This document shows, piece after piece, positions 6,109 through 52,500 of a stretch of 64,000 nt of DNA. The stretch is from Candidatus Thalassarchaeum sp. Lineage in GTDB: Archaea > Thermoplasmatota > Poseidoniia > Poseidoniales > Thalassarchaeaceae. The notes under the pieces are model-generated. The model saw only the letters and a list, made by a program, of their open reading frames with translations, was not told the DNA's origin and made no database searches. The stretch is taken from the NCBI GenBank assembly GCA_022451235.1, contig JAKUOA010000001.1:40401-104400 (forward strand), given 5' to 3'. Position numbers and translations under genes: made by a program. The stretch's first letter is position 1. Each line of letters starts with the position of its first letter.

Positions 6109-6165
6109 TATGGAATAAATCCCCCCTGAGTACCAAAGCATAGAGTTGAATAGCGCTACTGTAAG

Positions 6166-6822: not shown

Positions 6823-6876
6823 GTCCGTAGGACTCAGACCGAAGCGTAATAGGATAATCCTCAGTGGATTCTCTCC

Positions 6877-32397: not shown

Positions 32398-33285
32398 TCA
32401 ATTTCGAGTCCAAGATGGAATGAATACATCTCTCCAATTCGGAGTTGCAAGATATTCTTCCTCGGTAAAGAATGACCTTGCATAAATCGAAATAAAGTCG
32501 ATAATTAGAACAACAATGTAGATAATAATCAGGTATGCAAATACCTTGTCATATTGTAAAAATCTAAGATACAGATCGATGTAATATCCAATTCCTCCTG
32601 CACCGACAATGCCGATTACAGTACCAGAACGGAAATTATATTCAAACATGAATATCGAGTGAGAAATTAGATCATTTGCGGCTTCAGGAATAACTACGTT
32701 AACTGCTACTTCCCAACGACTCAAGCCTATTGCATTCGCCGCATCCAAAGGAGTTTTTGTCAGACCCTCAATTGATTCATACTGTAATTTTCCAAGATAT
32801 CCTACGGTGTAAATTGTCATTGCCAGAACGCCAGCTAATGGACCTAAGCCGACTAGAATAACCAAGAAAATAGCCCAAATCAATGCTGGAAGACTCCTGC
32901 ATGCTGAGATAAGAAAGCGGGTAGGGTAAGATATCCATCGCGGGCTTAAATTTCTTGAAGCCATGATTGACAAAGGTAATGTTACAACCATACCAAATAC
33001 AGTTGCAACAAACGCAATCTTTAGCGTCTCAATAACTCCCTTCCAAGCGGTTGAGCAAGTGAAATCGAAAATTGGTTGGGCAGTACAAACAGGGTATGTT
33101 TGAGGCTCTAGAACGCTCATATCTGGTGGCCAAAGAGACTGAAAGAAGAATCTGACAAGATTATCTGGGCCACCTGCTAATCTACCCCAGTCGCCAACCA
33201 TTCCGTTTAGAATTACAATTGCAAGCAAAAGGAGAATCCATAGCACCAGAGCCATCTTTTCGCCATCTACTGCTATCTTCTTCAT
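32398..33285 (-). CDS. phnE: ABC importer permease, PhnE-like
   Basis: 295 aa with 6 TM helices. The EAA-like loop is DAANAIGLSRWEVAVNVVIPEAANDLISHS. The start overlaps the stop of the upstream ATPase by 4 nt. Confidence 0.8.
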   Translation of the reverse strand: MKKIAVDGEKMALVLWILLLLAIVILNGMVGDWGRLAGGPDNLVRFFFQSLWPPDMSVLEPQTYPVCTAQPIFDFTCSTAWKGVIETLKIAFVATVFGMVVTLPLSIMASRNLSPRWISYPTRFLISACRSLPALIWAIFLVILVGLGPLAGVLAMTIYTVGYLGKLQYESIEGLTKTPLDAANAIGLSRWEVAVNVVIPEAANDLISHSIFMFEYNFRSGTVIGIVGAGGIGYYIDLYLRFLQYDKVFAYLIIIYIVVLIIDFISIYARSFFTEEEYLATPNWRDVFIPSWTRN

Positions 33286-33992
33286 GAATTCAACACCACA
33301 GCTTTTGGTTTGGTAATGAATGGATTCACTCTTCCATCATCAATAACTAGGAGGCGATTTGCCATTGACTTGGCTCTAGAAATATCATGCTCGACAACGA
33401 TTAATGCTGAATTATTATCTCTCACGTAGCTTGTCACGCTTTCCAAAACCATAGCCAATGTTTCTTCGTCTAATTCACTCAAAAATTCATCTGCTAGAAT
33501 TAATCTTGGTCGCTGAGCCAATGTTCTGGCCGTTGCGACTCTTCTCTGTTGGCCACCGGACAATCTCCTAATTGGTTCTCTTGACTTTTCCTTAAGCCCC
33601 ATTTGTTGAATTGCATTGGTAACTCGTTCCTTTCTTTCCTTCCTATCATTAGTTCCAGCTCGAGCACCCAACATTACATTGTGCCTAACACTTGCATGAC
33701 GAACTAAACCCAATTTTTGTGGAATATACCCTAGTGCGCCACGGAGAGGTTTCGAGGGAATTTCTGCACCACACACTGTGATCGAACCGGAAATTGGACG
33801 TATTAGTCCCGCAATTGTACCAAGTAAAGTGGACTTCCCGATACCAGAAGGGCCCGCTATGGCCACTATTTCACCAGGGAATATTTCGAGATTGGGAATA
33901 CTGACTAAGGGTGATTCAGTTTCATATCCGATTACTACATCTTCGAGGGAGACAATCGGATTTTCTGAACCCATACCCTCGGACAACTCCAA
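33282..33992 (-). CDS. phnC: ABC importer ATP-binding protein, PhnC-like
   Basis: Walker A GPSGIGKSTLL, Q-loop YIPQKLGL, signature LSGGQQRRVATART, Walker B LILADEFLSELD and H-loop VEHD. The ORF opens at TTG 33992. ATG 33974 (MGSENPIV) is a likely alternative start. Confidence 0.85.
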   Translation of the reverse strand: MELSEGMGSENPIVSLEDVVIGYETESPLVSIPNLEIFPGEIVAIAGPSGIGKSTLLGTIAGLIRPISGSITVCGAEIPSKPLRGALGYIPQKLGLVRHASVRHNVMLGARAGTNDRKERKERVTNAIQQMGLKEKSREPIRRLSGGQQRRVATARTLAQRPRLILADEFLSELDEETLAMVLESVTSYVRDNNSALIVVEHDISRAKSMANRLLVIDDGRVNPFITKPKAVVLNS

Positions 33993-36175: not shown

Positions 36176-36271
36176 TGATCAAAACCTCTGTCTACCCGAC
36201 TCTTGCTCAGGATGCTGATTTTTCAATGTTAGTCCTGAAGGAAATAACATAATTTTCAGTTTAATCCTGGT

Positions 36272-36340
36272 GTTGACAGGGGAACCTGTGATGTGTACAG
36301 ATTGCTCCTATGTGACGCTGTTAGAGTCCCCCCTGCCAAC
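36272..36340 (-). repeat. Long-range inverted repeat / hairpin element 1 (arms GTTGACAGGGG and CCCCTGCCAAC)
   Basis: 11-nt arms at 36272-36282 and 36330-36340. The single arm mismatch is A.C on the plus strand but a G.U wobble on the minus-strand transcript. Confidence 0.5.
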
Positions 36341-36370
36341 GGGTATTGCCAATGCTATTGGCTAAGGTTG

Positions 36371-36444
36371 TTGACAGGGGGCCTATTGCGTTCGAATACG
36401 AAATTCGAATGTAGGTGTCAGGCGCTGATACGCCCCCTGCCAAC
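36371..36444 (-). repeat. Long-range inverted repeat / hairpin element 2, with the same arm sequences as element 1
   Basis: Arms TTGACAGGGGG (36371-36381) and CCCCCTGCCAA(C) (36433-36444). It shows the same G.U-compatible asymmetry. The loop contains an internal hairpin TTCGAAT-acgaa-ATTCGAA. Confidence 0.5.
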
Positions 36445-36473
36445 TGTTTTGTCTTATCGACTGGTTACGTACT

Positions 36474-37709
36474 TCATTGGAGAGTTCCAATGTCTTCGGC
36501 TGTGATGCCAAATGCATCCCAGACTGGCTGTAGATAGGAGCGGATATCCGCTTCGTAATCTGCTGTTGCATCTCCATCATTCTTCAGATCGAAGATTTCG
36601 AGAATCTTGTCATTGTAGTAATTAGCATACCACCCAAATGCCTCGCACTCCTCCTCTGACATACCCTCATGCTGAGCGTGTGTCACTGAATTATAGCATC
36701 CTGTGAATTCCTCTCCACTCGGATCGTTTGGAGAAGTGTAGTTCTCCAGATACATGTATGCCTCGCAGGATGCCTGTGAGCTATCCGATGAGACCGTGTG
36801 AGATACCATGTTGTAGCAGATCGAAGTGTACTCAGCGACATATGCCTCGATTACCCTGTAGAAGGCGTGACCCTCTGCCTGGTGCTTGTCATAGTCTGCA
36901 GTATCTCCAGCAGCTAGGTCGTCCGTCATCTTTGATGCGTACCTTACAGAAGCCTGTGAGTAGACGATTACAATATTCTTCAGAACCTCGTCGCGTGCGT
37001 CGACTACTCCTTGCATATCTTCATTCTGGAGTGCAGTCAAGCCAGCGTTCATTGCGGCTAGAGTAGCGATGTTTGTAGCATCACCAGTCCCAAAGTTGCC
37101 ACCTCTCTTGGCGGCGGTTGCATATGGCCCACATCCATCGTAATCATGGTTGGAATCGTCAGGACCATGGTAGAAAGCCCATCCTTCGTCCCAAGCGTGT
37201 TGAGCGTCATCGGCCCCCCAGTTTCCTGCTTCCGCCTTGATGATTGCAGCGTTGAGTTCATGGATTGCATAAGCAGTCATCACACCATTCTGGATTCCCT
37301 TTTCGACTGCTTGATCTCTGACTGTGTCAGATTCTCCCTCGAAAGGACCTGTGCCATCAATAGCTGCGGATACGAAGTCATTCCATGAGCCGTCTGCATC
37401 ATAGTATGCGTCGTAGGCGTGGTTCTTGCCGGAAGCATCTGCGAAGCCCATGAGGGTCCTGTAGGAACCGTCGGACTTCTCCGCGTGCTTTCCATCATCA
37501 TAGATATCCTTCACACCGTCCCAATCGTATGCACCAGAGAGGTCCTTAATATCGCAGACATCACCCATTAACATTCGGTGATTATCAACGTTGGAAGCAT
37601 ACGTGTATCCTCCATCTGCGTCATCAAGATCTACATCATCTCCTGCACAACCGGCAATCGCACTGCCGATTAATACTAAAGTCATCATTAAAGTCATTGT
37701 TCTATTCAT
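36474..37709 (-). CDS. Secreted lipoprotein of unknown function (helical N-terminal domain plus Cys-pair module), co-located with the transferrin-like genes
   Basis: Signal and lipobox MNRTMTLMMTLVLIGSAIAGCAGDD. Acidic, with conserved-looking AQHAWDEGWAFYHG and YDKHQAEGHAFY. The C-terminal module CYNMVSHTV...CEAY...FTGCYNSVTHAQHEGMSEEECEAF is shared with the acidic surface protein. Confidence 0.75.
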   Translation of the reverse strand: MNRTMTLMMTLVLIGSAIAGCAGDDVDLDDADGGYTYASNVDNHRMLMGDVCDIKDLSGAYDWDGVKDIYDDGKHAEKSDGSYRTLMGFADASGKNHAYDAYYDADGSWNDFVSAAIDGTGPFEGESDTVRDQAVEKGIQNGVMTAYAIHELNAAIIKAEAGNWGADDAQHAWDEGWAFYHGPDDSNHDYDGCGPYATAAKRGGNFGTGDATNIATLAAMNAGLTALQNEDMQGVVDARDEVLKNIVIVYSQASVRYASKMTDDLAAGDTADYDKHQAEGHAFYRVIEAYVAEYTSICYNMVSHTVSSDSSQASCEAYMYLENYTSPNDPSGEEFTGCYNSVTHAQHEGMSEEECEAFGWYANYYNDKILEIFDLKNDGDATADYEADIRSYLQPVWDAFGITAEDIGTLQ

Positions 37710-37711
37710 AG

Positions 37712-37727
37712 TTTAGGTCTCCCTAAA
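37712..37727. promoter_or_regulatory. Palindromic box B, TTTAGGTCTCCCTAAA, 2 nt upstream of the lipoprotein start codon
   Basis: TTTAGG-N4-CCTAAA. Lies about 18 nt downstream (minus-strand sense) of the TATA-like TTCATATA, at the expected transcription start region. Confidence 0.6.
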
Positions 37728-37755
37728 CCGGCCGGATAGCGAATCGTATATGAAA

Positions 37756-37771
37756 TTTAGGGCGCCCTAAA
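37756..37771. promoter_or_regulatory. Palindromic box C, TTTAGGGCGCCCTAAA (perfect 16-bp palindrome)
   Basis: Perfectly self-complementary. It abuts the upstream side of the TATA-like element of the lipoprotein promoter. It lies in the divergent intergenic region shared with the GDPD-like gene. Confidence 0.6.
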
Positions 37772-37863
37772 CTCTTGAATCATGCGTGGAAAATTGTCAT
37801 ATAACTGATGAGCAGTCAATTGAATTGGAGACGAGGTTTTTTACTCATTTCTATTCGTAAATA

Positions 37864-38469
37864 TTGGTTTTAGTTACAAGGAGAGGATTAGTCTTGAGGA
37901 ATTTGGGGCATAGATTGGGGGCTTCTGGTACCAAAATGGAAAATACCATTGACGGGCTTATGGATTCATTAGAACAGGTAGATAATAGAAAATTTAAGTA
38001 TTGGGAATTTGATATTAGAGAATCTTTGGATGGAATAATTTTTGTCTTTCATGATGATCAAATACTTGCAGATGGAGAATTAATCGAAACCGCCAAATTG
38101 AATTTCTCTGAAATAATGAAAGCGGGTGAGGATTTGGGGGTAAAGATACCTACATTTTCAGAAGTTGTTGAAATATTGGGTGACCGGAAAGAAGATGTCA
38201 TGGTTGAAGTGAAAGAATTGAGAACTGATGCCGCTAGAAGAACCGTAATCACTGCGATTTCTAGTAAACCAAATTGGAAACTGATGGCTACTCCAACTAG
38301 ATTCTTGGAATCTTTTCCTAGTGAATCCAGGGAGTATTGGGAGCGATTTACTCGAGATTTGGACGTAGAATTCGTTAGAGTTGGCCGCCATAAATTGGAC
38401 CTTTTCAGCGCTTCTAAATCCTATTTTAGGTGGAAATTTGCTCAATTTAAATGGTTTTTCGGGATTTAA
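37864..38469 (+). CDS. Glycerophosphodiester phosphodiesterase-like (GDPD family) protein
   Basis: GHRLGASGTKMENTIDGLMDS and YWEFDIRESLDGIIFVFHDD match the GDPD HR...EN(T/S) and E.D...DG..v.HD motifs. Short at 201 aa. TTG start, start uncertain. Confidence 0.6.
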   Translation: MVLVTRRGLVLRNLGHRLGASGTKMENTIDGLMDSLEQVDNRKFKYWEFDIRESLDGIIFVFHDDQILADGELIETAKLNFSEIMKAGEDLGVKIPTFSEVVEILGDRKEDVMVEVKELRTDAARRTVITAISSKPNWKLMATPTRFLESFPSESREYWERFTRDLDVEFVRVGRHKLDLFSASKSYFRWKFAQFKWFFGI

Positions 38470-38532
38470 TAATGATGACTATTTTGAATTAATTTTTCCT
38501 ACAATTGATTATGAACCCCATTACTCACCCTA

Positions 38533-38967
38533 ATGTTGAAGAAAATGGTCAATACTGATGAGTTAATTGTGGCGCTAAATAATGCTCTCGCTTGGGAATT
38601 GAGGGCTATTGCAATGTATGCTCACTATTCCGCATACGTTTCAGGGATTCATAGATTACAACTTTCGGTATTCTTCAATAATGAAGTAACAGAATCAATT
38701 GCGCATGCTTCAACCGTAAGATCCGCTATAGTGAAATTACACGGTAAGGCCACTACGGAGAGGGCAGAAGAGCCTATTTTACACTCAATGGACTTCCGAG
38801 ATATGTTGGAAGAGGCACACAAAACTGAGTTGAAAGCTAGCGAGACATATGGAGACATTTTACCAATGGTTGAGCAAATTGGGGATAGCGAACTTTTTGA
38901 TGCCCTGGAAGTTATTTACTTTGATGAACTGAGATCTGTAGAAGAATTGAGAATGATGCTTGGTTGA
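38533..38967 (+). CDS. Ferritin-like / bacterioferritin-Dps-like four-helix-bundle protein
   Basis: LIVALNNALAWELRAIAMYAHYSAY parallels bacterioferritin helix A (LN..L..EL.AI.QY). Later Glu/His-containing helices are NNEVTESIAHAS, LEEAHKTELKASETY and FDALEVIYFDELRSVEEL. The spacing of one E/H pair deviates from canonical ExxH. Confidence 0.55.
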   Translation: MLKKMVNTDELIVALNNALAWELRAIAMYAHYSAYVSGIHRLQLSVFFNNEVTESIAHASTVRSAIVKLHGKATTERAEEPILHSMDFRDMLEEAHKTELKASETYGDILPMVEQIGDSELFDALEVIYFDELRSVEELRMMLG

Positions 38968-38993
38968 GATTTAAACATACTATTTATCGTTAG

Positions 38994-39009
38994 TTTAGGG
39001 TGCCCTAAA
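38994..39009. promoter_or_regulatory. Palindromic box D, TTTAGGGTGCCCTAAA, upstream of the monolobal transferrin-like gene
   Basis: TTTAGG-N4-CCTAAA. Begins 5 nt downstream of the TATA-like TATTTAT (38982-38988) and ends 31 nt upstream of ATG 39040. Confidence 0.6.
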
Positions 39010-39039
39010 CATTATCAAACAAACCGATTTCGGAGATGT

Positions 39040-40110
39040 ATGGAAAAAACTAGTTGGGCTGGTTGGGCCAAAGCTAACAAAGCACTTTTGCTCGCTGGAT
39101 TAGTGCTATCTGCGACCGTATTGTATCTCATTTTCGACATTAATTACGAACAATGTGATGATCAAGATAACTGTATTACAATCGCTTTTGAGGTACAAGA
39201 TGACTATTTGTATTTTGGAAAAGAGAACCCTCAGCACTTGGCAGACAAAATGAGTGCTCTGACTGGTATGGATGTTGAAATAATGCCTGTATCGAATTCC
39301 GGCGCGATAATCGAGGCTATCAATAATGGCAATGCGGATATTGGATTTGTAGATGGAGCGGCCGCTTGGCTTGCATGGGAAGTTTACGATTTGGACGTGC
39401 TAGCGGCTGAGTGGAAATTTGATCAAAGGACGTACTATAATGCGGCAGCCTGGGTGAAAAAGGACTCTGAAATTGCAGACGCATACCTAGATGATGATCC
39501 AGATACAGACCCATTTGCTTTGATGAATGGAAAAACGTCTTGCCACACAGGATGGCTGAAAAGTGCTGGGATGTTGATTCCAATGGGATACTTGATTGGA
39601 AATGGGTATGCTGAGGTACGTGGAGATCCTGAAGAAATTACTTCACTACGAGATACAGTGACGCATTTCTTCAACGAAGATTCAAGCATACCAGACGGAG
39701 GCACTCAATATTCTGGATACAAGGGTGCAATGAAGTGTATGATGACTGATCGCGGAGACGTTGCTTTAGTCAAGGATACAGCATATATGCTCTACTGTGA
39801 CGAAAATGAGGACGGAATTGCAGATGGTCCTGATTGGTGTTTAGATAGAGATGAGCTCGTTATGCTCGAGCCATTTGGTCAAGCACCGAGTCACCCCGCT
39901 TTGTATAATCCCTCGACTATGAATGACGAAATGGTCGAACTAATTCAAAATGCATTGGTGGATATGAATAATGATGAAGAAGGTACGAAGATACTCTCCG
40001 ATGTCTTAAACACTGAAGGGATGGTTGCTACGAATGCTACTGCTCACCTAGGCACATATGGTGCGGCTGTAGAGAACGTTCCTGGAATACAAGCATTTTT
40101 CGAGGATTGA
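39040..40110 (+). CDS. Monolobal transferrin-family protein with an N-terminal membrane anchor and all four canonical Fe ligands conserved
   Basis: Blocks GFVDGAAAW (Asp), RTYYNAAAWVKKDS (Tyr), NGKTSCHTGWLKSAGMLIPMGY (anion-site Thr, with Arg replaced by Lys), QYSGYKGAMKCMMTDRGDVALVKD (Tyr) and GQAPSHPALYN (His). N-terminal TM KALLLAGLVLSATVLYLIF. Confidence 0.8.
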   Translation: MEKTSWAGWAKANKALLLAGLVLSATVLYLIFDINYEQCDDQDNCITIAFEVQDDYLYFGKENPQHLADKMSALTGMDVEIMPVSNSGAIIEAINNGNADIGFVDGAAAWLAWEVYDLDVLAAEWKFDQRTYYNAAAWVKKDSEIADAYLDDDPDTDPFALMNGKTSCHTGWLKSAGMLIPMGYLIGNGYAEVRGDPEEITSLRDTVTHFFNEDSSIPDGGTQYSGYKGAMKCMMTDRGDVALVKDTAYMLYCDENEDGIADGPDWCLDRDELVMLEPFGQAPSHPALYNPSTMNDEMVELIQNALVDMNNDEEGTKILSDVLNTEGMVATNATAHLGTYGAAVENVPGIQAFFED

Positions 40111-40156: not shown

Positions 40157-41359
40157 ATGAGAGTGACGATTCCAATCCTAATTTTGTTGATATTATCCCT
40201 ATTTGCTGGATGCTTTTCAGACGATGGAGATGATTTTGACTGGGCTGATCCCCAAACAACGAATTGCAATTTAGCTAATGACTTGACTTGTACTAATTTG
40301 TTTCCGGGGACGGGGACGCCTCATCACTCCGAAGTAAATCCTCAAACCAACGAATTATGGATAATTTATCTCAGTGGAATGGTGAAAATTTGGCAAGATG
40401 GTGAACTAATACAAGCTGGAGACCTAAGTGAAATTGTAAATAGATGCCATACAGAACAAGGATTGCTTGGATTTGCATTCGATGCTAACTATAATTCCAC
40501 CAAACAACTCTTGTTATCATATGTGGAAAAAGGGAGTTGTGAAGGAGCGAATACCGCAGATCTTGTTCTAGCATCAGTTGTTGTTACTGATGATGTGATA
40601 AATTTGGACTCGTTAATCGTCTTGAAAACCGTCGAACAGCCATACAGGAATCATAACGGGGGGCATTTACTTGGTTTGGGTAATGGAGAATACCTCTGGG
40701 GAATTGGAGATGGAGGTGGGGCTAACGACCCAGAAAAGAATGGGCAAAATTCTGAAAATTTACTAGGCACTATTGTTTACTTCCAATACTCAAACGGCGA
40801 GGTTAATCCGGTTATGGATTCAGAAAATGAAAACTCCTACATCTTGCACTATGGTTTGCGAAATCCATGGAAATTCGACGTGGGCCCTAATGAGGAACTA
40901 TGGATTGCAGATGTCGGACAAAATTGTTGGGAAGAAATTAATTTGGTAAACTTGGTAAACAAATCAAACCTTGGGTGGTCAGAAAAAGAAGGGTTCAGTG
41001 ATTTTTCCGAAGGCGGAAGTTGTGAAGGAGGGGTTATGTCTGAAAATAACGAATATACGGACCCGGTCTTTGTCTATGGTCACAATAACGGAAATTGTTC
41101 CATAACCGGAGGGTTTTGGATTGAGAATACAATAATCTCAGACCAAGGTGGTTATCTGTTTGGAGACTTTTGTTCAGGTTCGCTATGGATTCTATCCAAT
41201 GGTGTAGATCACACATGGAAAGAGACCTATCTTGGTAACGTAGGGGGACTAATTGTAGGGTTTGGAGAAGGGGCTAATGGGGAGCTTCTGGTCTTTTTCT
41301 GGACTGGAGAAATCATACAAATCACTCAATCCGCTGCCGCCGATAGCAATATCGTGTGA
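40157..41359 (+). CDS. Soluble quinoprotein glucose/sorbosone dehydrogenase-like beta-propeller lipoprotein
   Basis: Lipobox-like LSLFAGCFSDD. GSDH motifs QGLLGFAFD, YRNHNGGHLLGLGNGEYLWGIGDGGGANDP, GLRNPWKFD and ITGGF. Confidence 0.75.
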   Translation: MRVTIPILILLILSLFAGCFSDDGDDFDWADPQTTNCNLANDLTCTNLFPGTGTPHHSEVNPQTNELWIIYLSGMVKIWQDGELIQAGDLSEIVNRCHTEQGLLGFAFDANYNSTKQLLLSYVEKGSCEGANTADLVLASVVVTDDVINLDSLIVLKTVEQPYRNHNGGHLLGLGNGEYLWGIGDGGGANDPEKNGQNSENLLGTIVYFQYSNGEVNPVMDSENENSYILHYGLRNPWKFDVGPNEELWIADVGQNCWEEINLVNLVNKSNLGWSEKEGFSDFSEGGSCEGGVMSENNEYTDPVFVYGHNNGNCSITGGFWIENTIISDQGGYLFGDFCSGSLWILSNGVDHTWKETYLGNVGGLIVGFGEGANGELLVFFWTGEIIQITQSAAADSNIV

Positions 41360-41378
41360 TTCCTGCTCCAGTATTGTG

Positions 41379-43376
41379 ATGAGACGCCAAGGCGCGCTTA
41401 GAATCGTGGTCATGATTACGATTATTGGAATGATGATTTCTTCGTTACAAATCGGCTACCAACAAGGTGGTCTTGATGAATCTCAAGACAGAAGAGAACA
41501 GCTCGGCCCTGATGAGCCTACGCTGGAGGAGCGATGTAGCGTCCTTACTTTCGAGGATATGTTTGAGTATACTAAAGCAGTATTCAATTTCACTATTGCC
41601 AATGATTGGAGTTCTGCCGAAATTGAAGCAGTTGCGTGGGTAAATGGGACTTTGGCAGATGATGTAAGACAGAGTTTAGATGAATATATTGCACAAATCT
41701 ACCCAAGTGGCGATGATGGATGGATTTCTACCGACGAAAGGGAAGGAGTCAGAGCTATTGCTTCGGAGTGCGTTCAATACACGTTTACTAGAATGGGTAT
41801 GCGTGATGGAAGTCCTCACAGAGGAGGTGACGGTACTGATTGGAAAAACACATCTTGGACCGAAGACGAGGTCCTAGTCGAAGAGTGGAATCTAGTCCCT
41901 CCTCGACATTCGGAATCGAGAGAATGTTCAGGAATTGGCAGTGGTAGCGATTGCTACGAGGTTCCGGTATATCCGGATAGTGACCGAGATTGCGATACCG
42001 ACGTAGATTCATCAAGCGGTCAAGATGAATGTAGAATGATGCTATGGCTAAATGCCACCATGACAATCTCAGGCATAAATGATCCAAGTGACTTCACTAT
42101 AGCCTATAATGCCTCAAACATGAGTGGGGCTGAATATCATATCAAATTCCCCGTAACCGAAGGACTCCGACTAGATATGTGGGAGGAATGTGAAGGACGA
42201 GACGTGCAAGTGGATATGGGTGATTTTGCTGGTGTGGCTCCTCTGAGAGGTAGTTGTATTGGTGACGGTTCTAGCAGCTATGAACTTAATGAAAACGAAG
42301 ATGGAAGTCTAACTTACTCCTTCTATCCCAACATGCCTCAGTGGCCTGTAGGAGAGGACCTGTTTGCCGACTTTACAACTGCACCAATCCCAGTGGACGA
42401 CCCTCCTGTCTGGACTGATAGCGCACCGACAGATGGAGCCTGGTTCCCTCGTGCGAGTGGGGGAGCACAGATTATCGCGGACTGGAATGAAGTTCAAAAT
42501 TGGTTCAATGATGAGGCTGGAGTATCGAACCTTGAGATGAATTGTAGAGGTGATGCAGGATTAGTAATTACCTACTCACAACGAGAGTTGTCGATGGATG
42601 TACCAAGAGGTCAGGCAGGAGAGGTCACCTGTGAAGCAATCGACAGTTCTGGCCAATCCTCAGGAAATAGAACTTGGAATGTAGGAGTTCCGTTCCAAAT
42701 TTCAACTACAGATACTGAACTATCAGACCCACATCCGATTACTCTCTCTCCAACCGATGGCTGGCCTGATCTATCTGTAGAAATCGGATTTTCCTCAAGC
42801 TTCGAAGAGGCAGGAACATATTACGGCCCATATTCAATTCAAGGCTCGGAAATAACTCAAGATATTGCTGTGGTGGGACTTGTCCCCGGTCCAGTATATG
42901 TCGCTGTAATAGTAACCGGAGAAGGAGTTTATAGTTTGCAAGCGACTTATGATTTGGGGATTCAAAAGGCCAGCAGCCCTCCAATAATGACAGTCACCAC
43001 CGAAGGGTGGGATGGTGATTCATGGTCGATGAGTGGTCAATTCTCCGATCCCGATGGTGAAACGATTAGTTTCAGCTTGATGATTGATGGGTCCTCAGTT
43101 GGAAGTATTACAGTCAGTGGGAATATGTGGTCCACACCTGCGATTGATTTCTCTGTCTGGACAGAAGGATCGCATATTGTTGAGGTTCAAGCCTGTGATG
43201 AGTCTGGCCTATGTTCAAGTCAACAACGTAGCGTTGACAATACTCATTTGTTCGTTGATCCAGAACCTGAACCTGAACCACCGAAGGACAACTCTTCGGT
43301 TCTTCCCTCAATGGGATTGGCCGGTCTGATTCTTGCGGCATCTGCCGCACTCATATACTCGGGCCGACGCGACTGA
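41379..43376 (+). CDS. Large acidic surface protein of unknown function with a PGF-CTERM-like anchor
   Basis: ATG 41379 gives MRRQGALRIVVMITIIGMMISSL as a signal/anchor (the ORF opens at 41262 and overlaps the upstream gene). An Ig-like C-terminal region, a DPEPEPEPP linker, then LPSMGLAGLILAASAALIYSGRRD. Confidence 0.75.
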   Translation: MRRQGALRIVVMITIIGMMISSLQIGYQQGGLDESQDRREQLGPDEPTLEERCSVLTFEDMFEYTKAVFNFTIANDWSSAEIEAVAWVNGTLADDVRQSLDEYIAQIYPSGDDGWISTDEREGVRAIASECVQYTFTRMGMRDGSPHRGGDGTDWKNTSWTEDEVLVEEWNLVPPRHSESRECSGIGSGSDCYEVPVYPDSDRDCDTDVDSSSGQDECRMMLWLNATMTISGINDPSDFTIAYNASNMSGAEYHIKFPVTEGLRLDMWEECEGRDVQVDMGDFAGVAPLRGSCIGDGSSSYELNENEDGSLTYSFYPNMPQWPVGEDLFADFTTAPIPVDDPPVWTDSAPTDGAWFPRASGGAQIIADWNEVQNWFNDEAGVSNLEMNCRGDAGLVITYSQRELSMDVPRGQAGEVTCEAIDSSGQSSGNRTWNVGVPFQISTTDTELSDPHPITLSPTDGWPDLSVEIGFSSSFEEAGTYYGPYSIQGSEITQDIAVVGLVPGPVYVAVIVTGEGVYSLQATYDLGIQKASSPPIMTVTTEGWDGDSWSMSGQFSDPDGETISFSLMIDGSSVGSITVSGNMWSTPAIDFSVWTEGSHIVEVQACDESGLCSSQQRSVDNTHLFVDPEPEPEPPKDNSSVLPSMGLAGLILAASAALIYSGRRD

Positions 43377-43380
43377 GTTC

Positions 43381-44130
43381 GTGAGCTTCTCAGGCACCGT
43401 GGACAGAGAGTCGCATGAAGGGGGCCTCCTCGTTTCCTTTGAGGGACGTGCGCCGAGACTTGGGGCTACTTTACGAATAATCGGTGGAAAGCCGATTGGT
43501 AAGGTTAATTCAGTAATTGGAGCGATTGATGGGGCGTTTGTTCACATTCATCCAATTACAGATCAAATAGAAGTCACAAGCACAATCGGCTCTCCGGTTG
43601 AAATCGCTCCAAGAGAGAAAAGAGAGTATCGTGGTCGTGGAAGAGATAGTTACTCGAAAAGAGATTCTCGCCGTGATGGGCGACGTGGTGGAAATAATGA
43701 CAGAAAAGGCGGAGATTGGACTTGTCCTAAGTGTAACAATTCTAATTTTGCCTTTCGAAAGAAGTGTAATCGCTGTGAAGCAGATAGGCCTCGAGATGGA
43801 GGAAGGAAATTCGAAAGAAAATTTGAACGAGGTGGTAACAATAAGCAAAAAGGAGGTGATTGGACTTGTCCTAAGTGCAACAACTCTAACTTTGCCTTCA
43901 GAGATAAATGCAATCGCTGTGATGCTAGTCGGCCTAGTTCAGGTGGAAAGCCCCCATCGAGAAGTAGATCCAACCAAAACCGAGGCCCTAGGCCTCAAGG
44001 AGGTCCATCTGGACGAGGACGAGGACGAGCGCCAGGGAGCGCAAGTAAACCACGAAGATCTGGATTCAGAGGCACTGGTCGAGGTGGTTCTAGAGGCAAT
44101 CGACCAGGAAGAGGTAGCGGTAGGCGCTGA
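43381..44130 (+). CDS. gar1: Gar1-like (H/ACA RNP) core fused to two RanBP2-type zinc fingers and RGG/GAR-rich tracts
   Basis: The N-terminal ~85 aa fit the archaeal Gar1 pattern (G.V....GGLLV.....P.LG..L....GKPIGKVNSVIG......V.I.P......IG..V). Two fingers are GGDWTCPKCNNSNFAFRKKCNRCEADRP and GGDWTCPKCNNSNFAFRDKCNRCDASRP (W-x-C-x2-C-x3-N-x6-C-x2-C). The C-terminal tract is RGRGRAPG...RGTGRGGSRGNRPGRGSGRR. GTG 43381 was chosen because ATG 43333 would overlap the upstream gene. Confidence 0.65.
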   Translation: MSFSGTVDRESHEGGLLVSFEGRAPRLGATLRIIGGKPIGKVNSVIGAIDGAFVHIHPITDQIEVTSTIGSPVEIAPREKREYRGRGRDSYSKRDSRRDGRRGGNNDRKGGDWTCPKCNNSNFAFRKKCNRCEADRPRDGGRKFERKFERGGNNKQKGGDWTCPKCNNSNFAFRDKCNRCDASRPSSGGKPPSRSRSNQNRGPRPQGGPSGRGRGRAPGSASKPRRSGFRGTGRGGSRGNRPGRGSGRR

Positions 44131-44177
44131 GTTTGGGTCACCCCAGCATTCATTTTGTCTAATCCTGAGCAAGACCT

Positions 44178-45206
44178 ATGGCGAACAAGGCGGATATGCT
44201 CTGGGAAGATGTTCTCGAGCTTGAAGAGGCTGGTGAGAGGCTGGAAGCCCTCGATCTATGTCGCCGAATCACCCGCATGGAGCCAGACCATGCCGCCGCT
44301 TGGAAAATGACCGCAAGGATGACTCTTCCAGCAGCAAGGAGAGGTGTGCAAGATATGCCTACTCTACCACAAGCGGCTAGTGCTTATTCCGCATTACAAA
44401 ATGTCGTGAGATTGGAACCGGAGGATACAGAATCATGGGCATTGGGAGGAATTCTTCTCGTTGACCACCTAGGTATGCTAGAAGAAGCACTTGAGTGGTG
44501 GCAGCAAAGAAGGCAAGTCAACCCCGAAGATGTGACGCCACTAATCGAACAAATTGCCATACTTGTACGACTTGGGATGTATTCTGAAGCTAGCGAGTTG
44601 TTGGAAATCATGTTCGACTCGGAAATGGAACAACCAGACCGTAAGCAACTCATGAATATGGATCGAGTTAGGCAGATGGTTGACAAGGCGGCCAAAATGG
44701 AGAAAGAGGAAATATTCAGGCCACAAAATTCCAAACATCCTCGATGGGAGATAATCGGTCGAATGAAAACTCGTAAACCACTCTCTGAGACTTTCTTCCT
44801 GTTCACTTTTGTTGCTCCAATTGTATTCATTATTGGTACTATAGCCATGAGTGCACTTGGAGGCAGTCAATATGGCTTCATTTTGGTGTTTTTGATTATT
44901 CTAGGGCTATTTATGGGGGTAAGTCGAGCTGGTGCTGGATTATTGCAAAAACTCAACCGACACGCACTCGACTTAGAAAGGGCAATCGATGTAGAGGCAA
45001 CTTCAGCAAAGATATGTGTACCTACTGAAATTCGCGGTAGTAAACTCTACAATTATACGATTGGAAAACGAACTGAAGCCTTCCAAGACCGTCATAGTAG
45101 AATTATAGAGTCAGACGAAATTATTGATAAAAAGTGGAGCCCAGAACTACCTGATTTTTCAAATACTGAAAGTTGGTGGGGAGAGGCTGAGGAATCCGAA
45201 GATTAA
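44178..45206 (+). CDS. TPR-like repeat protein with two central TM helices, function unknown
   Basis: N-terminal TPR-like helices (ALDLCRRITRMEPDHAAAWKMTARM, ALQNVVRLEPEDTESWALGG, LEEALEWWQQRRQVNPED). TM pair FFLFTFVAPIVFIIGTIAMSALGG and FILVFLIILGLFMGV. Confidence 0.65.
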   Translation: MANKADMLWEDVLELEEAGERLEALDLCRRITRMEPDHAAAWKMTARMTLPAARRGVQDMPTLPQAASAYSALQNVVRLEPEDTESWALGGILLVDHLGMLEEALEWWQQRRQVNPEDVTPLIEQIAILVRLGMYSEASELLEIMFDSEMEQPDRKQLMNMDRVRQMVDKAAKMEKEEIFRPQNSKHPRWEIIGRMKTRKPLSETFFLFTFVAPIVFIIGTIAMSALGGSQYGFILVFLIILGLFMGVSRAGAGLLQKLNRHALDLERAIDVEATSAKICVPTEIRGSKLYNYTIGKRTEAFQDRHSRIIESDEIIDKKWSPELPDFSNTESWWGEAEESED

Positions 45207-46551: not shown

Positions 46552-49500
46552 TCAATTGCCGCCGCCTTGTTCTTGTTGGGCATAATATGCTGCGTAATAC
46601 TGCTCGGCATATTGCCTCGCAGTAGCCTCGTCATAGCCTTGTCCGACCATCTGTTGGACGTATGCTTCGACTGGGTCCATTTGCTCTACACCACCAAACT
46701 GTTCAACAGTGTCTTGGCCATCATCTGATTTACCTCTCGATCTAACTACAACTAGAGTTACACCAACAATTGCTAGAACCAAAATAAGTCCGATAGCAGC
46801 GAACATGATAACGTCGGTACTACCACTTTCTGACTCACAACCATCGCTTGATGGGTTCAGAGCACAGGGGTCGCTTGATCGAGGAAGTAAGTCGATTTTG
46901 AACTGGTCATCCAACGTGTACCGGCTTCCGTCTCCCTCAACAACTCTCCAGTATATTGTGACCTGTGTTCCACTAGTCTCCAAGTACAGATCTGCAATGT
47001 TTAGAGTGATTGTGAAGGTGTCCCCGTCTGCAAGTAAGGCTGGACCTGTGGAATTGTATTTTCCTAGTGCCTTCTGAGTAGCCTTTGGAGAGGGAGTCAA
47101 ATCCAAATGGGCTGAATCTAAAGCCACCTCAATCAAGACACCGTTTTCGGCACCTGATTCTACAATACCATTGATTGTGACTAAATCTTGACTCTGAGAA
47201 TCAGTAGAACGTGGTGAAGTAATATCCACAACTGGCGGTTCGTCTCCAAAGTCCTCGCCAACTACAATGAAGTAGATTCGTGCCTTTTCTGATTGCTTTC
47301 CAGCTCGATCGTATACAATCAATTCTAGCCTAATCTGGTTCTCAAGCGTTCCATCGCTGGTCATGTTACGGAATACATAATTCCACATGTCACCACCAGC
47401 TGCGTTCGGTACCTGGAAGTTGTGACCTTCTAGAGTTGGATTCGAGGAATCTACCGGATAATCGAAGAACACCCGATACTCAAACATCTCAATTCCTCTC
47501 TCGCCCTCAGGTGCATCATCGTCAGAGCTTGCTGAAGAATCGAAGGATAGACTGATGTCACCGCTGTCGGTTAATCTAACTCGATAAATTGGCCAATCTA
47601 TGCCCCCAACGGTTTTACTTCCTTCAAGACTGACGTACTCATCAGTAACGCTGTCCTCAATCAGTTGTAGATCTGCATTAGGTCGGAATTCGTCCGCCAA
47701 TGTATCATCTGTTACTAGATTGATGTAAGTGATTCTTGTGTGGCCCTCGTCATCGTGTAAATACAGAGTCAGAAGCCATTCTGCACCGATTCTACATCCA
47801 GTTGTGGAACTCGAATCGCCAACGCAGAAGCTACCAAGAGCAGGTATGCTTGCACTGTTTTGACGAATATGGCTAATTTCACCGAAATCGATAATTTCTC
47901 CTTCCCACCCTGTAACCGACTCGTTCATGTCTGTAGATTGTAATGTCCAATCGGCAATAATACCGTCAGCCAAGGATGAATCCGAAGTCAAGAAAGAGAA
48001 ATCCAGTTCAGAGTTCGACTTGATGTACATGGTTGCGTAGGCACCTGTAACTGTGTCAATCGAAGGGGCTTCTCCGTTCACAGTCAAGTCAAATCCATCG
48101 CCCGCAATTCCGAAGTTGCTTGGGTATGGAGTTACTTGATAGTCGAGCATATTGGATAACAGTGGCATAGAGGTTCCACTAAATGGTTGGGAGAAACTTG
48201 GATTCTCAACGTCAAGGGTAGTAACAATCATTCCACCTGCTCCGCGATTACATATCGAAAGTAACGACTGTGAGTCAAACGATTCACTTCGCATTAGAGT
48301 ATGGAAGGTTCCGGTTGGATCACTAATTCGACCGCCACAAACTTGTGGAATCTGGTCGAATTGTACCTGTGCTGTATCGAGACCCGCTAATGCGACGTAT
48401 GCGCCACCGTGAACGCCTGCAAAGGCTGCAGTATCGACGTTATTCATCAGTGGGTGGTATGCATCGACAATAACTAGGTCATCATTTGTGACTGTGTTAT
48501 TCCATTGGTTTCGCATAGCGATGTCCATTCCGAAAGGTAGCCTATTTGGCTGATATTCGTTGCGATATGGCCCAAGGTGAATCTGAACAGTTCCACCGTT
48601 AACCATGTATGCTTCTAGGACTTCTGTAACTGATAGACCGTCTGATTCTCTAGTAGAAGCTAGTGTCTCGTAATATTGTCCGTACTCGACATTGTAATCA
48701 GTCTGCCATGGTAGCAAGATTTTCTCATAATGAGACATCCAGTTCTCGGTTGCGTATCTATCCCAATCATTTACTGACAACTGAGTATATGTCATTCCCA
48801 TCGACTCTAGGTCCTGCTTAACTCTCTGCAAACGATTCTGGTCAGTAGGATTGGACAGAATTGCGACATCAACAGTGTCAAAGAATTCTATTTCGAAGAA
48901 TCGATCATTTCCTGATGACTCTCCATCTTCAGTCAATATAGCATAGAAACTAATGTTGTATTGATGACCATCGTACCAGCCGTTGTAAGGTGCAGTCCAA
49001 TTAGCGAAGTCTCGAGCATGGGCTTCAAGATCAAACGGCCCATTATCTGCCGGCTGTTCGTAAACAGTTTGACCTGTTGTCATATCTACAATCTTCATGT
49101 TCACCTCATACTCGCCTGCGATTACACCATTCAGAAGAGGAACGGTGAATGAGTGCTGAGAGACTGAATCATATGTGTAGACGCACTTGTATGTGATATC
49201 AGAAACACAATCAAGCACATTTGGTTGCATCAAAGTTATGTCCGCGCTTGCGATACTGAAGATAATTTGGGTATGATTATTTGCGGTGGTAATCTCAGTT
49301 TTATTATACCATGATGTATCTTCAATTGTACTATTGAATAGTGTTGTTGCATCAATTCGGTAAATTCCCGATTTGAAGTCATGCGTTGCCACCGTAACGT
49401 CTTCGCGCTCCGATGCATCAAGTCCATTGACGTCGTTGATGTAAGTTCCATCATCCTCGAAAGTGAATTCATCGATACGAATATTATCGACTGCAAATCC

Positions 49501-52500
49501 GGCAAGACCAGCATTTCCATTGACCCCATCGTCGTTTGATTGGAATCTCCATGTTAAGGTGACTTCCGAGCCGGAAAGATCTGTGCACTCCGTCCTCCAC
49601 TCGAAGGTATCGTTAGAGGTCTGGTTTAGCAGAGTTATGTGAGTCATATCAATGATTACTGACTTAACTAGACTTTCGGAATCAAACCAAACTACAGACT
49701 CGTATCGGTCGGAATGGTCTCCCATGTATTCGACCTCATCATATCGACCATTGTTGTCGAAATCTTCACAGGCACCTAGACCGCTACCATCTTGGAAAGG
49801 CCTTAGTCCATTTTCGTTAAGATCTGTCCAGCTTCCCCAAACGGTTCCACTATAGATTTCTCCACCCTTAGACCACTCAATTTCTAGGCCAGCAGCGTCA
49901 CGTATTGCTAGAATGTTCCCTTGCTGATCTGAAAGGAAGTCACCCTCTGCAAAGTAATCAAATGTTAGGTAAGTGAAGTCGGTTCCACCAGAAGCGACCG
50001 GGAAAGGATCGAGGGTTAGAGTCTCGTCCCAATTGTCACCATAACCTGTGTCTGGGTCGCCTAACCAATATGCAAAGGAATTGAACACACCTCTGCTTTG
50101 TGGTAACATTGGATGGTCACCATTGGTGTCATCTAAGCGACTTCCATTCATATTTCCATCATCTTCCCAAATAGGTTCTAATCCTGAGAAATCCTCAATT
50201 GCGATTAGATCAGGGAGAGCATTCTTGACTACAGTTTCCAATTGGAAGTCTGTCAGCGTGTTTCCAAAGTTCTGAACTCGAATCTCTATGTCGCGATCGC
50301 CAGATGCATATCTCAGTCCATTCTCAAGACTAATCCATGGCTCCTCTGCAACACCTGGATCGAATAGGTTCTTGACAGTGATCTGGAATTTTACCTCGTC
50401 ATTTGTTGCATCTGCATTATCAAATCCACTGGGGTTGGTTAATTCTGTCTTGATGTAATATGTTCGGTTGTCGATGAAATCAGCATTAAGAGTGACTTCC
50501 TCGGTAGCACCAGCTGCGAAATCTGAGAATGACAGAGTTTGGCTTACGACTTCTTCGGTGCCGAATATAACATCGGTTTTGCGAATAGAAATATTGTCAA
50601 ATGCAAACCCATCTAGTCCCGTTTCCTGAGACGATCCATCTGGGCCGACACTTCCCATCAAACCACTTCGGAAGCGGAAGCGGATGTCTACAACTTCACC
50701 TGCATAGCGAGTAAGGTCAATTGCATCGTCACCGGAATAACTGGTCCAGGTTGTTACGGTCTCGGTGTAGAAGTTTCCATTGTAAGTGTTGTATTCAGGA
50801 TCATATCCTAAGCCAATAAGTCGGAAGTATCTCTCATTATCCCAGCCTCCTGTGAAGAAAACCTGTTCCCATCCATTGCCGTCGCTCCAAACCTCAATAC
50901 CACAGGAGTCCTCATACAACCATCGCTCTACTACGGCGTATTGCTCAGCGAGATACAACTCAAAGAATGCGGCGCTGCAGAACAGATCCAAATCCAGATA
51001 TGCTGCATCTGCACCCGTTAAGTCGACATTCTCAATGATGAATGCCTCGTCCATATTGTTGTAGTAACCTGAATCGTTATCCTGGTCATTATGGTCCATT
51101 CCAGCCCACATGTAAGTGGTTGGGTTTCTGTCGGCTTCCCACCAGTCATCAGTGGCTGAACCATTAGAATCGGTAGATGCATTCCACTCTTCGTGCCACG
51201 ATGATGAACCTTCGCTATATTCTCCTGTGTAGGATTTTAGGGCAATTGAACAAGCAGGACAATTAGTATTGTCTATGTTACCCTCAAAGTCGTTGGAATA
51301 GACGAGAGTGTCAATTCCATCAAGAACTTCCTTTACTTCTAAATCGACATCAACTGAACCAGAAATAGGGTTTAGGCCAGTGTTTTTGACTGTTAAGTTG
51401 ACAAAACGGTTCCCCTCACCAATCATGGCTGCTCCAGTCGCTGGATCGTATGCCGCAGGTGCAATGCTTACCTCGGTAATTCCAACATCCTCATTATCGA
51501 GACTGAGGACTGAAAGGAAATCACCTGCTCCAGCCCAACCTTGAGTATCAAGCCACATAGCGCTGTTTGCGAATCTGTATGATCTGTCTCGCTGTCCGAT
51601 GGCTATCTCGTATGCACTATTTTCTCCGCCGGCTAGCTGACCTGGGACTGCCATAGTTGGTCGGCGGCCAACGTCAAAGGAAAGCGATGAAAGATACCCA
51701 TTTCCGTTTGGATTACCAAGAATGATTTCTACTGTATTGATTTCCCTTAGGTTATCCACCAGCAAGTATGTTTGGTTCTGTGCAGTGGAGTCCTGCAAGC
51801 GAGTTAGAGTAACTTCCGTTGGAACGAAGAAATCCATGTGTCCATCTCGATTTACATCAGCAATGGTAAGCGAGGCACCTAGATAATCCCCAAGAGGTAC
51901 GTAATTTTGAGTATTCCATGATGAACCGGATCGAGTTGCATAGGATATATTTCCTGTAATTCCATCGACAGCGGCGATTAGGTCAACCTCTCCATCATCA
52001 TTGGTATCGGAAATATCGATTCCATACAAAGGATAGTTGTGGTCTGCGTCCAGCTTGAAATTATGTACGCCACTTGCTGTTGCATCCAATGGGTTTGGAT
52101 AAGTTCCTAGAGTACAGTCGTATTCAAGCACGGTCATGTTGTCATAGTGACCATTCGAGAATCCAACACCAGTGTTGTACGGAGGTGAGCGTAGCAACCA
52201 AATGTCCAGATCTTCACAATCTCCAACACCACCACCAGGAAGGCCACCTCCGCCAAGAACATCTTCTCCCCAATGTCCTAGGATTAAGTTCGTGTGTAGT
52301 CCATTAGTAAGTGGCACTGGAATGGTTTGTTGAGCCGTTATTTGAGTTGGGTCCGGGCCCTTGTATATGTTGATGTAATTATTAGTGAAAGTAGGGTCAA
52401 CCACACTCATCACAATATCTGCATCTCCGTCACCATCAATATCCTCTACATCCATGTCCTGAAGATACGGATTGCTAACTGTGATTGCCTCAGAAGGATT

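Follow-up and report, generated by a model that had tools for sequence, protein, structure and literature searches.

Diverged Gar1 with FUS/ZRANB2-class zinc fingers and a basic, RG-rich extension in the archaeal family Thalassarchaeaceae

In the 64,000 nt-long stretch of a Candidatus Thalassarchaeum sp. genome that we analysed (contig JAKUOA010000001.1; hereafter the window, whose first letter is position 1), a gene at 43381-44130 of the forward strand encodes a protein of 249 amino acids (aa). An initial annotation, made from the letters alone, had seen in it a core like that of Gar1, a subunit of the box H/ACA ribonucleoprotein (RNP) particle of RNA-guided pseudouridylation, followed by two RanBP2-type zinc fingers and by eukaryote-style RGG or glycine/arginine-rich (GAR) tracts. 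Is such a protein a Gar1 at all and, if so, what could the added segments do and where could they come from? We consider it to be the Gar1 orthologue of this archaeon, which belongs to Marine Group II (family Thalassarchaeaceae of the order Poseidoniales), and it appears probable to us that its barrel binds Cbf5, that its extension is a multivalent RNA arm which raises the affinity of the particle or localises it, and that unequal recombination drives the evolution of the finger array.

The gene (gar1 in the following) begins with a GTG codon and ends with a TGA stop codon at 44128-44130, according to the open reading frame (ORF) list and to the starts of the homologues, all of which begin with MSFSG at the position of the GTG. 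A longer ORF, starting from a TTG at 43333, was rejected, since it runs into the upstream gene and disagrees with the homologue starts.

The N-terminal barrel

The core of the protein (aa 1-79, 43381-43617; this and all the other features of the gene lie on the + strand) was delimited by AlphaFold2, Foldseek, profile searches and hhalign, the Pfam model of Gar1, PF04410, remaining below its threshold. We aligned 27 diverse cores from relatives of the window protein and used this alignment, named A1, both as a profile and as the input of AlphaFold2, which returned a six-stranded beta-barrel with a predicted local distance difference test (pLDDT) score of 91.5 and a predicted template modelling (pTM) score of 0.80. 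When the core model was compared by Foldseek with the PDB, ranks 1 to 13 were all taken by Gar1 (P. furiosus, yeast, insect and human telomerase), with template modelling (TM) scores, normalised to the query, of 0.71-0.81. The best match was chain 2ey4_D of Pyrococcus furiosus (TM 0.81/0.85, root mean square deviation 2.1 Å), to which the identity in the structural alignment is about 22%.

The initial annotation had set other small barrels against Gar1, namely a PUA domain, domain 2 of EF-Tu or the like, and Foldseek decides against them, the barrels of aIF5B domain II (TM 0.55-0.65) and of the RimM N-domain (0.58) being ranked after the 13 Gar1 structures with clearly lower scores. Naf1, a paralogue of Gar1 that serves eukaryotes as an assembly factor, is not favoured either, as its TM of 0.67-0.70 is below the 0.77-0.81 of Gar1 and as it is not known from archaea.

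At the level of single sequences, a phmmer search of the PDB with the window protein gave no Gar1 match, and the sole family matched by the core was PF04410, though sub-threshold. Searching with residues 1-100 gave 121 relatives, of which 7 have a precomputed PF04410 match and one has the IMG name 'rRNA processing protein Gar1'; the orthologue P0104 reaches 29.2 bits against the PF04410 cut-off of 29.3. With A1 as the query, ranks 1 to 4 in the PDB were Gar1 chains of P. furiosus, with marginal E values (0.06-0.14), and yeast Gar1 was sixth. An exhaustive hmmsearch with A1 against 1.84 billion cluster representatives gave 126 matches at E <= 1e-3, whose strong end is made of long proteins of the Poseidoniales type and whose weak end is made of short proteins of 75-101 aa; two matches, both long repetitive proteins, seem unrelated. 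In this search canonical Gar1 was reached at whole-library E values of 1e-6 to 1e-3: 7 of the 8 short canonical-looking matches that were scanned with Pfam match PF04410 (4 above its cut-off), and the short matches include Methanothermobacter Gar1 (MTH_886 family) and Thermoproteota GAR1.

The alignment of A1 with a canonical Gar1 set by hhalign had a probability of 99.1% (E = 5.7e-19, 73 columns), in a comparison that is partly circular, the canonical set having been picked among the matches of A1 itself. Of the eight residues that do not vary in the canonical set, seven (G5, G15, P25, G40, V42, G47 and P58, in window numbering) are matched in this family by columns that are invariant or nearly so, including those of the G-x-V-x2-V-x-G-P...P motif that canonical Gar1 and this family share. 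Across the family the core has a mean column identity of 75%, with 24 invariant columns. Since the fold match, the exhaustive profile search, hhalign and the shared invariant residues agree, the N-terminal domain is a diverged Gar1 barrel; precisely, the Gar1-like N-terminus first proposed is supported by fold and profile and not by the single-sequence cut-offs of Pfam and NCBIfam.

With canonical archaeal Gar1 (PF04410; P. furiosus 2ey4 and 2hvy; Methanothermobacter MTH_886) the window protein has in common the six-stranded barrel, the signature motif and the N-terminal position. It differs in that its barrel has diverged below the curated Pfam and NCBIfam cut-offs and in that its 249 aa include added fingers and long, disordered, R/G-rich segments, whereas the canonical proteins that we recovered consist of the 75-101 aa given above. 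This length agrees with what the initial annotation had stated, that archaeal Gar1 proteins are short and have no Gly/Arg-rich domains, the absence of RGG being stated also in the literature (PMC8096250). The named short canonical matches belong to other phyla, and one conserved, syntenic gar1-like locus per genome was found in 80 species.

Zinc fingers, their duplication and their number

Finger 1 covers aa 111-137 (43711-43791; Cys115, 118, 129 and 132) and finger 2 covers aa 159-185 (43855-43935; Cys163, 166, 177 and 180). PF00641 matches the window protein with E = 2.4e-19 and 68.7 bits, against a cut-off of 27, in two stretches (the best one at aa 111-137, the second at about aa 159-185), and a Pfam search finds no other domain in the protein than this finger and the weak Gar1. 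Thus, of the two profile searches suggested in the initial annotation, that with PF00641 was clearly positive and that with PF04410 remained sub-threshold. The strict pattern W-x-C-x2-C-x3-N-x6-C-x2-C occurs at exactly two sites, nt 43717 and 43861, when all six frames of the window are read, and has no occurrence outside the gar1-like gene in about 0.75 Mb of related loci. In the AlphaFold model of the full-length protein, which looks like beads on a string, the core has a pLDDT above 90, finger 1 of 80-85 and finger 2 of 57-68, and the linkers and the tail are below 50.

As single sequences, the fingers match in the PDB the finger of FUS (6g99_B, E = 1.7e-6 with finger 2) and then ZNF265/ZRANB2, RBM10 and RBM5. 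For a ranking by profile we distinguished two types of finger in the family, namely type A (C-x2-C-x10-C-x2-C, GDWxCPKC[NK]NxN[FY]A[FRK]RxKCNRC, 66 modules) and type B (C-x2-C-x10-C-x4-C, GDWxCPKCKNHN[YF]A[NS]KxxCNRxxC, 41 modules), and built a 29-residue profile from 27 type-A modules. Finger 1 of ZNF265/ZRANB2 (3.6e-9), FUS (3.7e-7) and TAF15 (7.4e-7) came first, followed by ZRANB2 finger 2 (3.9e-6), RBM10 (1.9e-5) and RBM5 (2.9e-5). One two-finger construct of Nup153, at 4e-6, scores like ZRANB2 finger 2; all further Nup153 entries have values of 4e-3 or weaker, and TRABID/ZRANB1, which bind ubiquitin, have about 0.02.

In finger 2 of ZRANB2 the residues that contact GGU are D4, N14, W17, R19, R20 and N24, and FUS and EWS, with W at position 19, keep the GGU specificity (De Franco et al., PMC6384913). 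Both window fingers have D4, N14, F17, F19, R20 and N24, a FUS/EWS-like pattern (with F in place of the W at 19). Among the 66 type-A modules the contact positions are conserved as D4 in 96%, N14 in 100%, F/Y17 in 100%, R20 in 100% and N24 in 98%, and position 19 is F in 81%, R in 9% and K in 6%. From these conserved contact residues the fingers are predicted to bind single-stranded RNA (ssRNA), with a preference for GGU/GGN. The likeness to the FUS finger is very close over the whole module (gDWtCPKCkNsNFAfRdkCNRC in the window), all the RNA-contact positions being common to the two; a difference is in the first zinc knuckle, C-x2-C in the window fingers and C-x4-C in those of FET/ZRANB2 type. 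By PF00641, contact residues and PDB ranking, the two RanBP2 fingers of the initial annotation are therefore bona fide and of the FUS/ZRANB2 RNA-binding class, to which EWS, TAF15, RBM5 and RBM10 belong as well and which binds single-stranded GGU RNA.

A repeat search found the finger unit as a direct DNA repeat of 122 nt, with the first copy at 43683-43804 and the second, 76% identical, 144 nt downstream at 43827-43948, so that the tandem duplication noticed before (43711-43790 and 43854-43935) is enclosed by these coordinates and holds. Between the two units dN (nonsynonymous divergence) is 0.138, dS (synonymous divergence) 1.83 and dN/dS 0.075, and the differences at codon positions 1, 2 and 3 are 8, 3 and 18, respectively. 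The duplication is old and kept by strong purifying selection, and is neither a recent slip nor an assembly artefact.

The number of fingers varies in the family. In the window protein and the complete orthologues of 70 loci, 71 in total, we counted 0 fingers in 21 proteins, 1 in 8, 2 in 28, 3 in 13 and 4 in one. Close relatives, with a core identity of 88-99%, differ by exactly one unit of 48 aa, made of a finger and its spacer: the window protein, L003 and L004 have two fingers and L001, L002 and L005 have three, and a single cluster at 90% identity contains members of 296 and 239 aa. The finger-less orthologues, 150-175 aa in length, retain a tail of 70-95 residues rich in R, G, K and S. 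The architecture of the tail tracks the clustering of the cores, given that one cluster is finger-less, that of the window is AA or AAA, a Thalassarchaeum cluster is B..BA and another one is B, BB or BBB.

For the survey of the distribution of the fusion, which the initial annotation had proposed, one genome per GTDB species was scanned, which gave 114 relatives, and 80 loci were kept. All of them are from Poseidoniales (Marine Group II), mostly from Thalassarchaeaceae (MGIIb), and the closest relatives of the window protein (core identity 97-99%) are in the single-cell genome AG-404-A19 and in the metagenome-assembled genomes (MAGs) UBA126 and MED-G37. Two loci, L065 (PBUF01000091.1) and L067 (PARX01000028.1), are archaeal ones in MAGs labelled as Gammaproteobacteria and Rhodobacteraceae, labels that are probably due to a binning error. 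The gene order is up704, gar1, a TPR membrane protein, in part of the loci an S-adenosylhomocysteine (AdoHcy) hydrolase (AhcY), and a giant FG-GAP ORF, with up704 kept in 77 of the 80 loci, the TPR gene in 67, AhcY in 42 and the giant ORF in 61, and this conserved order means that they represent one orthologous locus.

In Poseidoniaceae (MGIIa; the sources name either Poseidonia or Poseidoniaceae) there are divergent homologues, whose cores begin with MF.G.V...SHEGGLL and which have fingers and RGG tracts as well, and one of them bears the NCBI name 'H/ACA ribonucleoprotein complex subunit GAR1/NAF1'; the elaboration thus spans the order. The maximum length is 379 aa among the orthologues and 461 aa, with up to four fingers, for the cores of Poseidoniaceae type. 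The extended gar1 is not a one-off fusion and is the normal state of a single syntenic locus throughout Thalassarchaeaceae, with 0 to 4 fingers, with divergent finger-bearing homologues in Poseidoniaceae.

Basic linkers, RG tail and eukaryotic counterparts

Around the fingers lie a first basic linker, KREYRGRGRDSYSKRDSRRDGRRGGNNDRKG (aa 80-110, 43618-43710, predicted to be disordered, with pLDDT below 50 for aa 86-109), the inter-finger spacer RDGGRKFERKFERGGNNKQKG (43792-43854, also predicted to be disordered, with pLDDT below 50 for aa 141-158), which belongs to the 48-aa repeat unit, and a C-terminal tail rich in R, G, S and P (aa 186-249, 64 residues, 43936-44127; delimited by composition and by a pLDDT below 50), which ends in the conserved motif GRGRGRAPGSASKPRRSGFRGTGRGGSRGNRPGRGSGRR. 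Over the whole extension (aa 78-249), R makes up 22% and G 18% of the residues, with 51 K+R against 15 D+E. Its 11 RG, 3 of which are RGG, are scattered, with one tri-RG motif, and no di- or tri-RGG box of the strict eukaryotic GAR/RGG type is present in the window protein.

In sister lineages the low complexity is far more eukaryote-like than in the window (L016-L021, L028, L030 and L033; locus coordinates about 6001-7140): L016, L018, L020 and L021 have 15-20 RGG, 2-3 tri-RGG boxes and runs such as GGDRGGYRGGDRRDNRGG between the fingers, and L028, L030 and L033 have (GGYSGGRSGG)n runs that are reminiscent of FET proteins. The eukaryote-style RGG/GAR tracts of the initial annotation must accordingly be reduced to RG-rich tracts for the window protein, with its 3 RGG, multiple RGG being found in the sisters.

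Within the subclade of the window the last ~40 residues (GRGRGR.PGSASKPRRSGFRGTGRGG.RGNRPGRGSGRR) are almost invariant, which argues for a specific function and not for a drifting composition. Some canonical archaeal Gar1 proteins, such as P0240 with PRRGRGRRPGRGKRPGRRRRGGRK, already end in a short basic stretch rich in R and G, and the tail looks like an expansion of such an ancestral basic C-terminus. The homologues of Poseidoniaceae type (P0162, P0188, P0189 and P0203) have at their C-terminus a conserved FRKA+GK+xGHAHN+xP+xxR, which is absent from Thalassarchaeaceae. As concerns a modification of the arginines, the Pfam scan of the 44 larger ORFs of the window (at least 143 aa) found no protein arginine methyltransferase (PRMT), and we know of no arginine methylation in these archaea.

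Eukaryotic Gar1 (yeast Gar1p, human GAR1/NOLA1) likewise combines the barrel (TM 0.77 with 3u28_C) with disordered, R/G-rich, RNA-binding low complexity, and the 15-20 RGG and tri-RGG boxes of the sister lineages add to the likeness, of which the window protein, with only 3 RGG, has less. In eukaryotic Gar1 the GAR domains are on both sides of the barrel (PMC8096250; PMC9957100), whereas the extension of the window protein is only C-terminal and contains RanBP2 fingers.

The likeness to FET/ZRANB2 proteins that the initial annotation had drawn from an RGG-finger-RGG arrangement is confined to the RG-finger-RG module. RG/RGG flanks of the fingers are common to FUS and to the family of the window protein (with even GGYSGG repeats in L028, L030 and L033), but the rest of the FET architecture, in which a SYGQ-rich domain and an RRM accompany the RGG-finger-RGG module, is not there: by Pfam there is no RRM in the window protein, which, differently from FET, ZRANB2, RBM5 and RBM10 proteins, also has no SYGQ-rich prion-like domain. 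Moreover, the fingers of this family are fused to an H/ACA subunit, in tandem arrays of up to four, and those of FET type are in splicing and transcription factors. A RanBP2-type finger in an archaeal protein was already reported for ArnA of Sulfolobus (PMC6509490). ArnA is an FHA-domain regulator of the archaellum with a single N-terminal finger and, unlike the window protein, without RG tracts or a link to RNA modification.

Proposed role, its alternatives and significance

As in Gar1 of other archaea, the barrel would dock within the box H/ACA RNP on Cbf5, the pseudouridine synthase, at its catalytic domain, where it would control the thumb loop and hence substrate loading and product release. 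The flexible and strongly basic C-terminal extension, with its array of fingers of the ssRNA class, was added in this lineage and would give the H/ACA particle an extra affinity for RNA. Precisely, G-rich trinucleotides (GGU/GGN) would be the targets of the fingers, the RG tracts would contact RNA in a non-specific way, and together the two might help to capture or hold rRNA or other substrates, or to concentrate the particle on nascent rRNA. This role would parallel the one proposed for the GAR domains of eukaryotic Gar1; in yeast the deletion of the RGG domains of Gar1 alters H/ACA activity, their precise role being called elusive (PMC8096250). The array itself would evolve by unequal recombination of the 48-aa finger-plus-spacer unit, with each finger under strong purifying selection.

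Several points weigh against this proposal. The window protein has 13.2 bits with PF04410 (E = 0.077) and the core alone 16.6, for a cut-off of 29.3, and 19.4 bits (E = 9.5e-4) with the NCBIfam Gar1 model NF009632, for a cut-off of 107; the hhalign comparison has the circularity already described. No Cbf5/TruB, Nop10 or L7Ae was found in the 64 kb by the Pfam scan of the 44 ORFs, a size class that leaves Nop10-sized ORFs unscanned, and no H/ACA guide RNA by the Rfam scan of the whole window, which finds two tRNAs only. The neighbours of gar1 (a surface protein, the TPR membrane protein and AdoHcy hydrolase) are uninformative on RNA modification. Both the predicted RNA preference of the fingers and their putative zinc binding have residue conservation as their only basis, and the type-B fingers of sister clades, with N/S-K in place of F-R at positions 19-20, may have a different or weaker specificity. 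As to the missing linkage with cbf5, it is uninformative, because in well-studied archaea gar1 is commonly unlinked to cbf5.

As regards origin, the initial annotation had left the choice between a convergence and an archaeal precursor of a eukaryotic architecture. We favour a lineage-specific, convergent elaboration of Gar1, because there are finger-less orthologues in the order, the canonical Gar1 proteins recovered from other archaea have 75-101 aa and eukaryotic Gar1, to our knowledge, has no zinc finger. The precursor is unsupported, since in the exhaustive search the feature is limited to cores of Poseidoniales type and Poseidoniales, which belong to Thermoplasmatota, are not near the eukaryotic stem.

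The finger module could also have been gained horizontally from a eukaryote and then fused to gar1, an alternative that concerns the origin only and is compatible with the function that we favour. In fact, the closeness to eukaryotic RNA-binding fingers (E down to 3.6e-9 with the 29-residue profile) exceeds what one usually sees between independent zinc ribbons, past gene transfer is documented for Poseidoniales, which live alongside phytoplankton (PMC6461757), and the same window encodes a protein with EF-hand and LDL-receptor-A modules. However, a domain of 30 residues carries too little signal to polarise a transfer, and the search with the finger region (aa 101-195) in a set of 5.8 billion proteins, with 7 matches out of 31 candidates, amounts to no survey of archaeal RanBP2 fingers beyond the family and to no gauge of their frequency in other archaea. 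We regard such a gain as conceivable, though on the unlikely side.

We give little credence to the view that the protein has a Gar1-derived or Gar1-like fold and works outside the H/ACA particle, as an independent protein with a general role in RNA binding or as an RNA chaperone (for example, one associated with the ribosome or the nucleoid), in which the barrel would be one more module for binding RNA or proteins. The scores below the cut-offs of the curated Gar1 models, the structural alignment with P. furiosus Gar1 at only ~22% identity, the 64 kb without an H/ACA partner gene and an extension about twice as long as the barrel, which dominates the protein, would all suit it. Against it stand a syntenic locus conserved across Thalassarchaeaceae with a highly conserved barrel, the canonical Gar1 invariant residues that are invariant here too, an exhaustive profile search that, save for two long repetitive proteins, recovers Gar1 alone, and finger-less orthologues of 150-175 aa that resemble an ordinary Gar1 with a longer basic tail; an unlinked cbf5, as said, tells nothing.

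Ubiquitin-binding NZF fingers have a T-F dipeptide after the second Cys. We find it very improbable that the fingers are protein-interaction modules, either of the Nup153/RanBP2 type, which binds Ran, or of the NZF type of Npl4, TAB2 and TRABID, which binds ubiquitin (the target being perhaps a ubiquitin-like SAMP or another RNP protein), since, even if many members of the RanBP2 finger family bind proteins, the two-finger Nup153 construct has an E value (4e-6) level with that of ZRANB2 finger 2 and Sulfolobus ArnA, which has a RanBP2-type finger, works through protein contacts (PMC6509490), the six positions by which ZRANB2 and FUS contact RNA are all conserved in the type-A fingers, the top three solved matches (ZRANB2 finger 1, FUS and TAF15) are of the ssRNA-binding class with the ubiquitin binders at ~0.02, the second Cys is followed by N-N, and the fingers sit in RG-rich, strongly basic linkers, as in FUS.

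Returning to Gar1 with an RNA-binding arm, a more speculative extension of it, which we consider a long shot, would be an independent 'nucleolar' solution in Poseidoniales, where the multivalency of RGG/RG and of GGU fingers would drive a condensate-like clustering of the rRNA-modification machinery on nascent rRNA, or a guide-independent selection of substrates, with the number of fingers tuned rapidly between populations. In a bolder version, the RG-finger-RG module of FET/ZRANB2 and the archaeal one would share their origin through gene exchange between archaea and eukaryotes.

Upstream of gar1, at 41262-43376 on the + strand, lies up704, which encodes a membrane-anchored protein of 704 aa with no assigned family (it has hydrophobic anchors at the N- and C-terminus and no significant Pfam match) and whose stop is 4 nt before the start of gar1. 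The gap between the two genes is of a few nucleotides in the 22 orthologous loci that we inspected, and this tight adjacency suggests a co-transcription of functionally unrelated genes. A promoter candidate, CTCAT[A/G]TA, about 30 nt upstream in finger-bearing clades, was rejected as uninformative, because it lies within the coding sequence of up704 (where it reads LIY/LMY) and is absent from the finger-less clades. Downstream, beyond gar1, the TPR gene and AhcY, the giant FG-GAP ORF of 2161 aa is on the opposite strand (46552-53037). In nearly all the finger-bearing lineages AdoHcy hydrolase separates the TPR gene from the giant ORF, and in the finger-less ones it is not at that position, a synteny marker that splits the loci into the same two groups as the architecture of the Gar1 tail.

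By Pfam the rest of the window encodes subtilases, a xanthine-dehydrogenase-like cluster, MoxR and DUF58 proteins, shikimate-pathway enzymes, ABC transporters, an iron-uptake set, AdoHcy hydrolase, aconitase, cyclophilin and a 2-oxoacid:ferredoxin oxidoreductase. An apparent iron-acquisition island lies upstream of gar1 at 34079-40110, with substrate-binding proteins of transferrin/phosphonate-binding type (34079-36175 and 39040-40110), a Fea1-like low-iron-inducible protein (36474-37709) and a ferritin-like protein (38533-38967); ABC transporter genes are at 32398-33992. On the - strand, at 28683-31130, a protein of 815 aa contains an LDL-receptor class A module (aa 299-329) and a pair of EF-hands (aa 567-617), calcium-binding modules that are typically eukaryotic and unusual for an archaeon.

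In public databases one orthologue is labelled 'predicted nucleic-acid-binding Zn-ribbon protein/rRNA processing protein Gar1' by IMG and another one 'RanBP2-type domain-containing protein' by UniRef, the NCBI names being mostly 'hypothetical protein'. Many NCBI entries of the family are 'partial', and frameshifted or fused readings (window 43598-44224 in the +1 frame; P0001, P0044, P0109, P0116, P0123, P0128 and P0139) contain the off-frame peptide KAEIGLVLSVTILILPFERSVIAVKQ. The family is under-annotated because the repetitive region of fingers and RG tracts evidently breaks assemblies and gene calls. In the library that we searched, no paper was found that links Gar1 with Marine Group II/Poseidoniales or with archaeal RanBP2 fingers, and nothing relevant on Cbf5 or Nop10 in Poseidoniales.

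Poseidoniales are the archaea most abundant in the plankton of the surface ocean. Gly/Arg-rich extensions of small nucleolar RNP (snoRNP) proteins are treated in the literature as eukaryotic, both for Gar1 (PMC8096250) and for fibrillarin, with the GAR domains of fibrillarin and GAR1 (PMC9957100). Here an archaeal order has made a comparable addition to the same H/ACA subunit, and has added fingers of FUS/ZRANB2 type to it, so that the finding runs counter to a common generalisation and shows a familiar RNP subunit gaining domains within one lineage. Nature provides here an independent experiment on the contribution of RNA-binding, low-complexity tails to the H/ACA particle, and it comes as a graded allelic series of 0, 1, 2, 3 or 4 fingers, with or without true RGG boxes, that could be used for biochemical reconstitution. 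It also offers a prokaryotic case for asking whether the multivalency of RG tracts and fingers may lead to the clustering of RNPs without a nucleolus.

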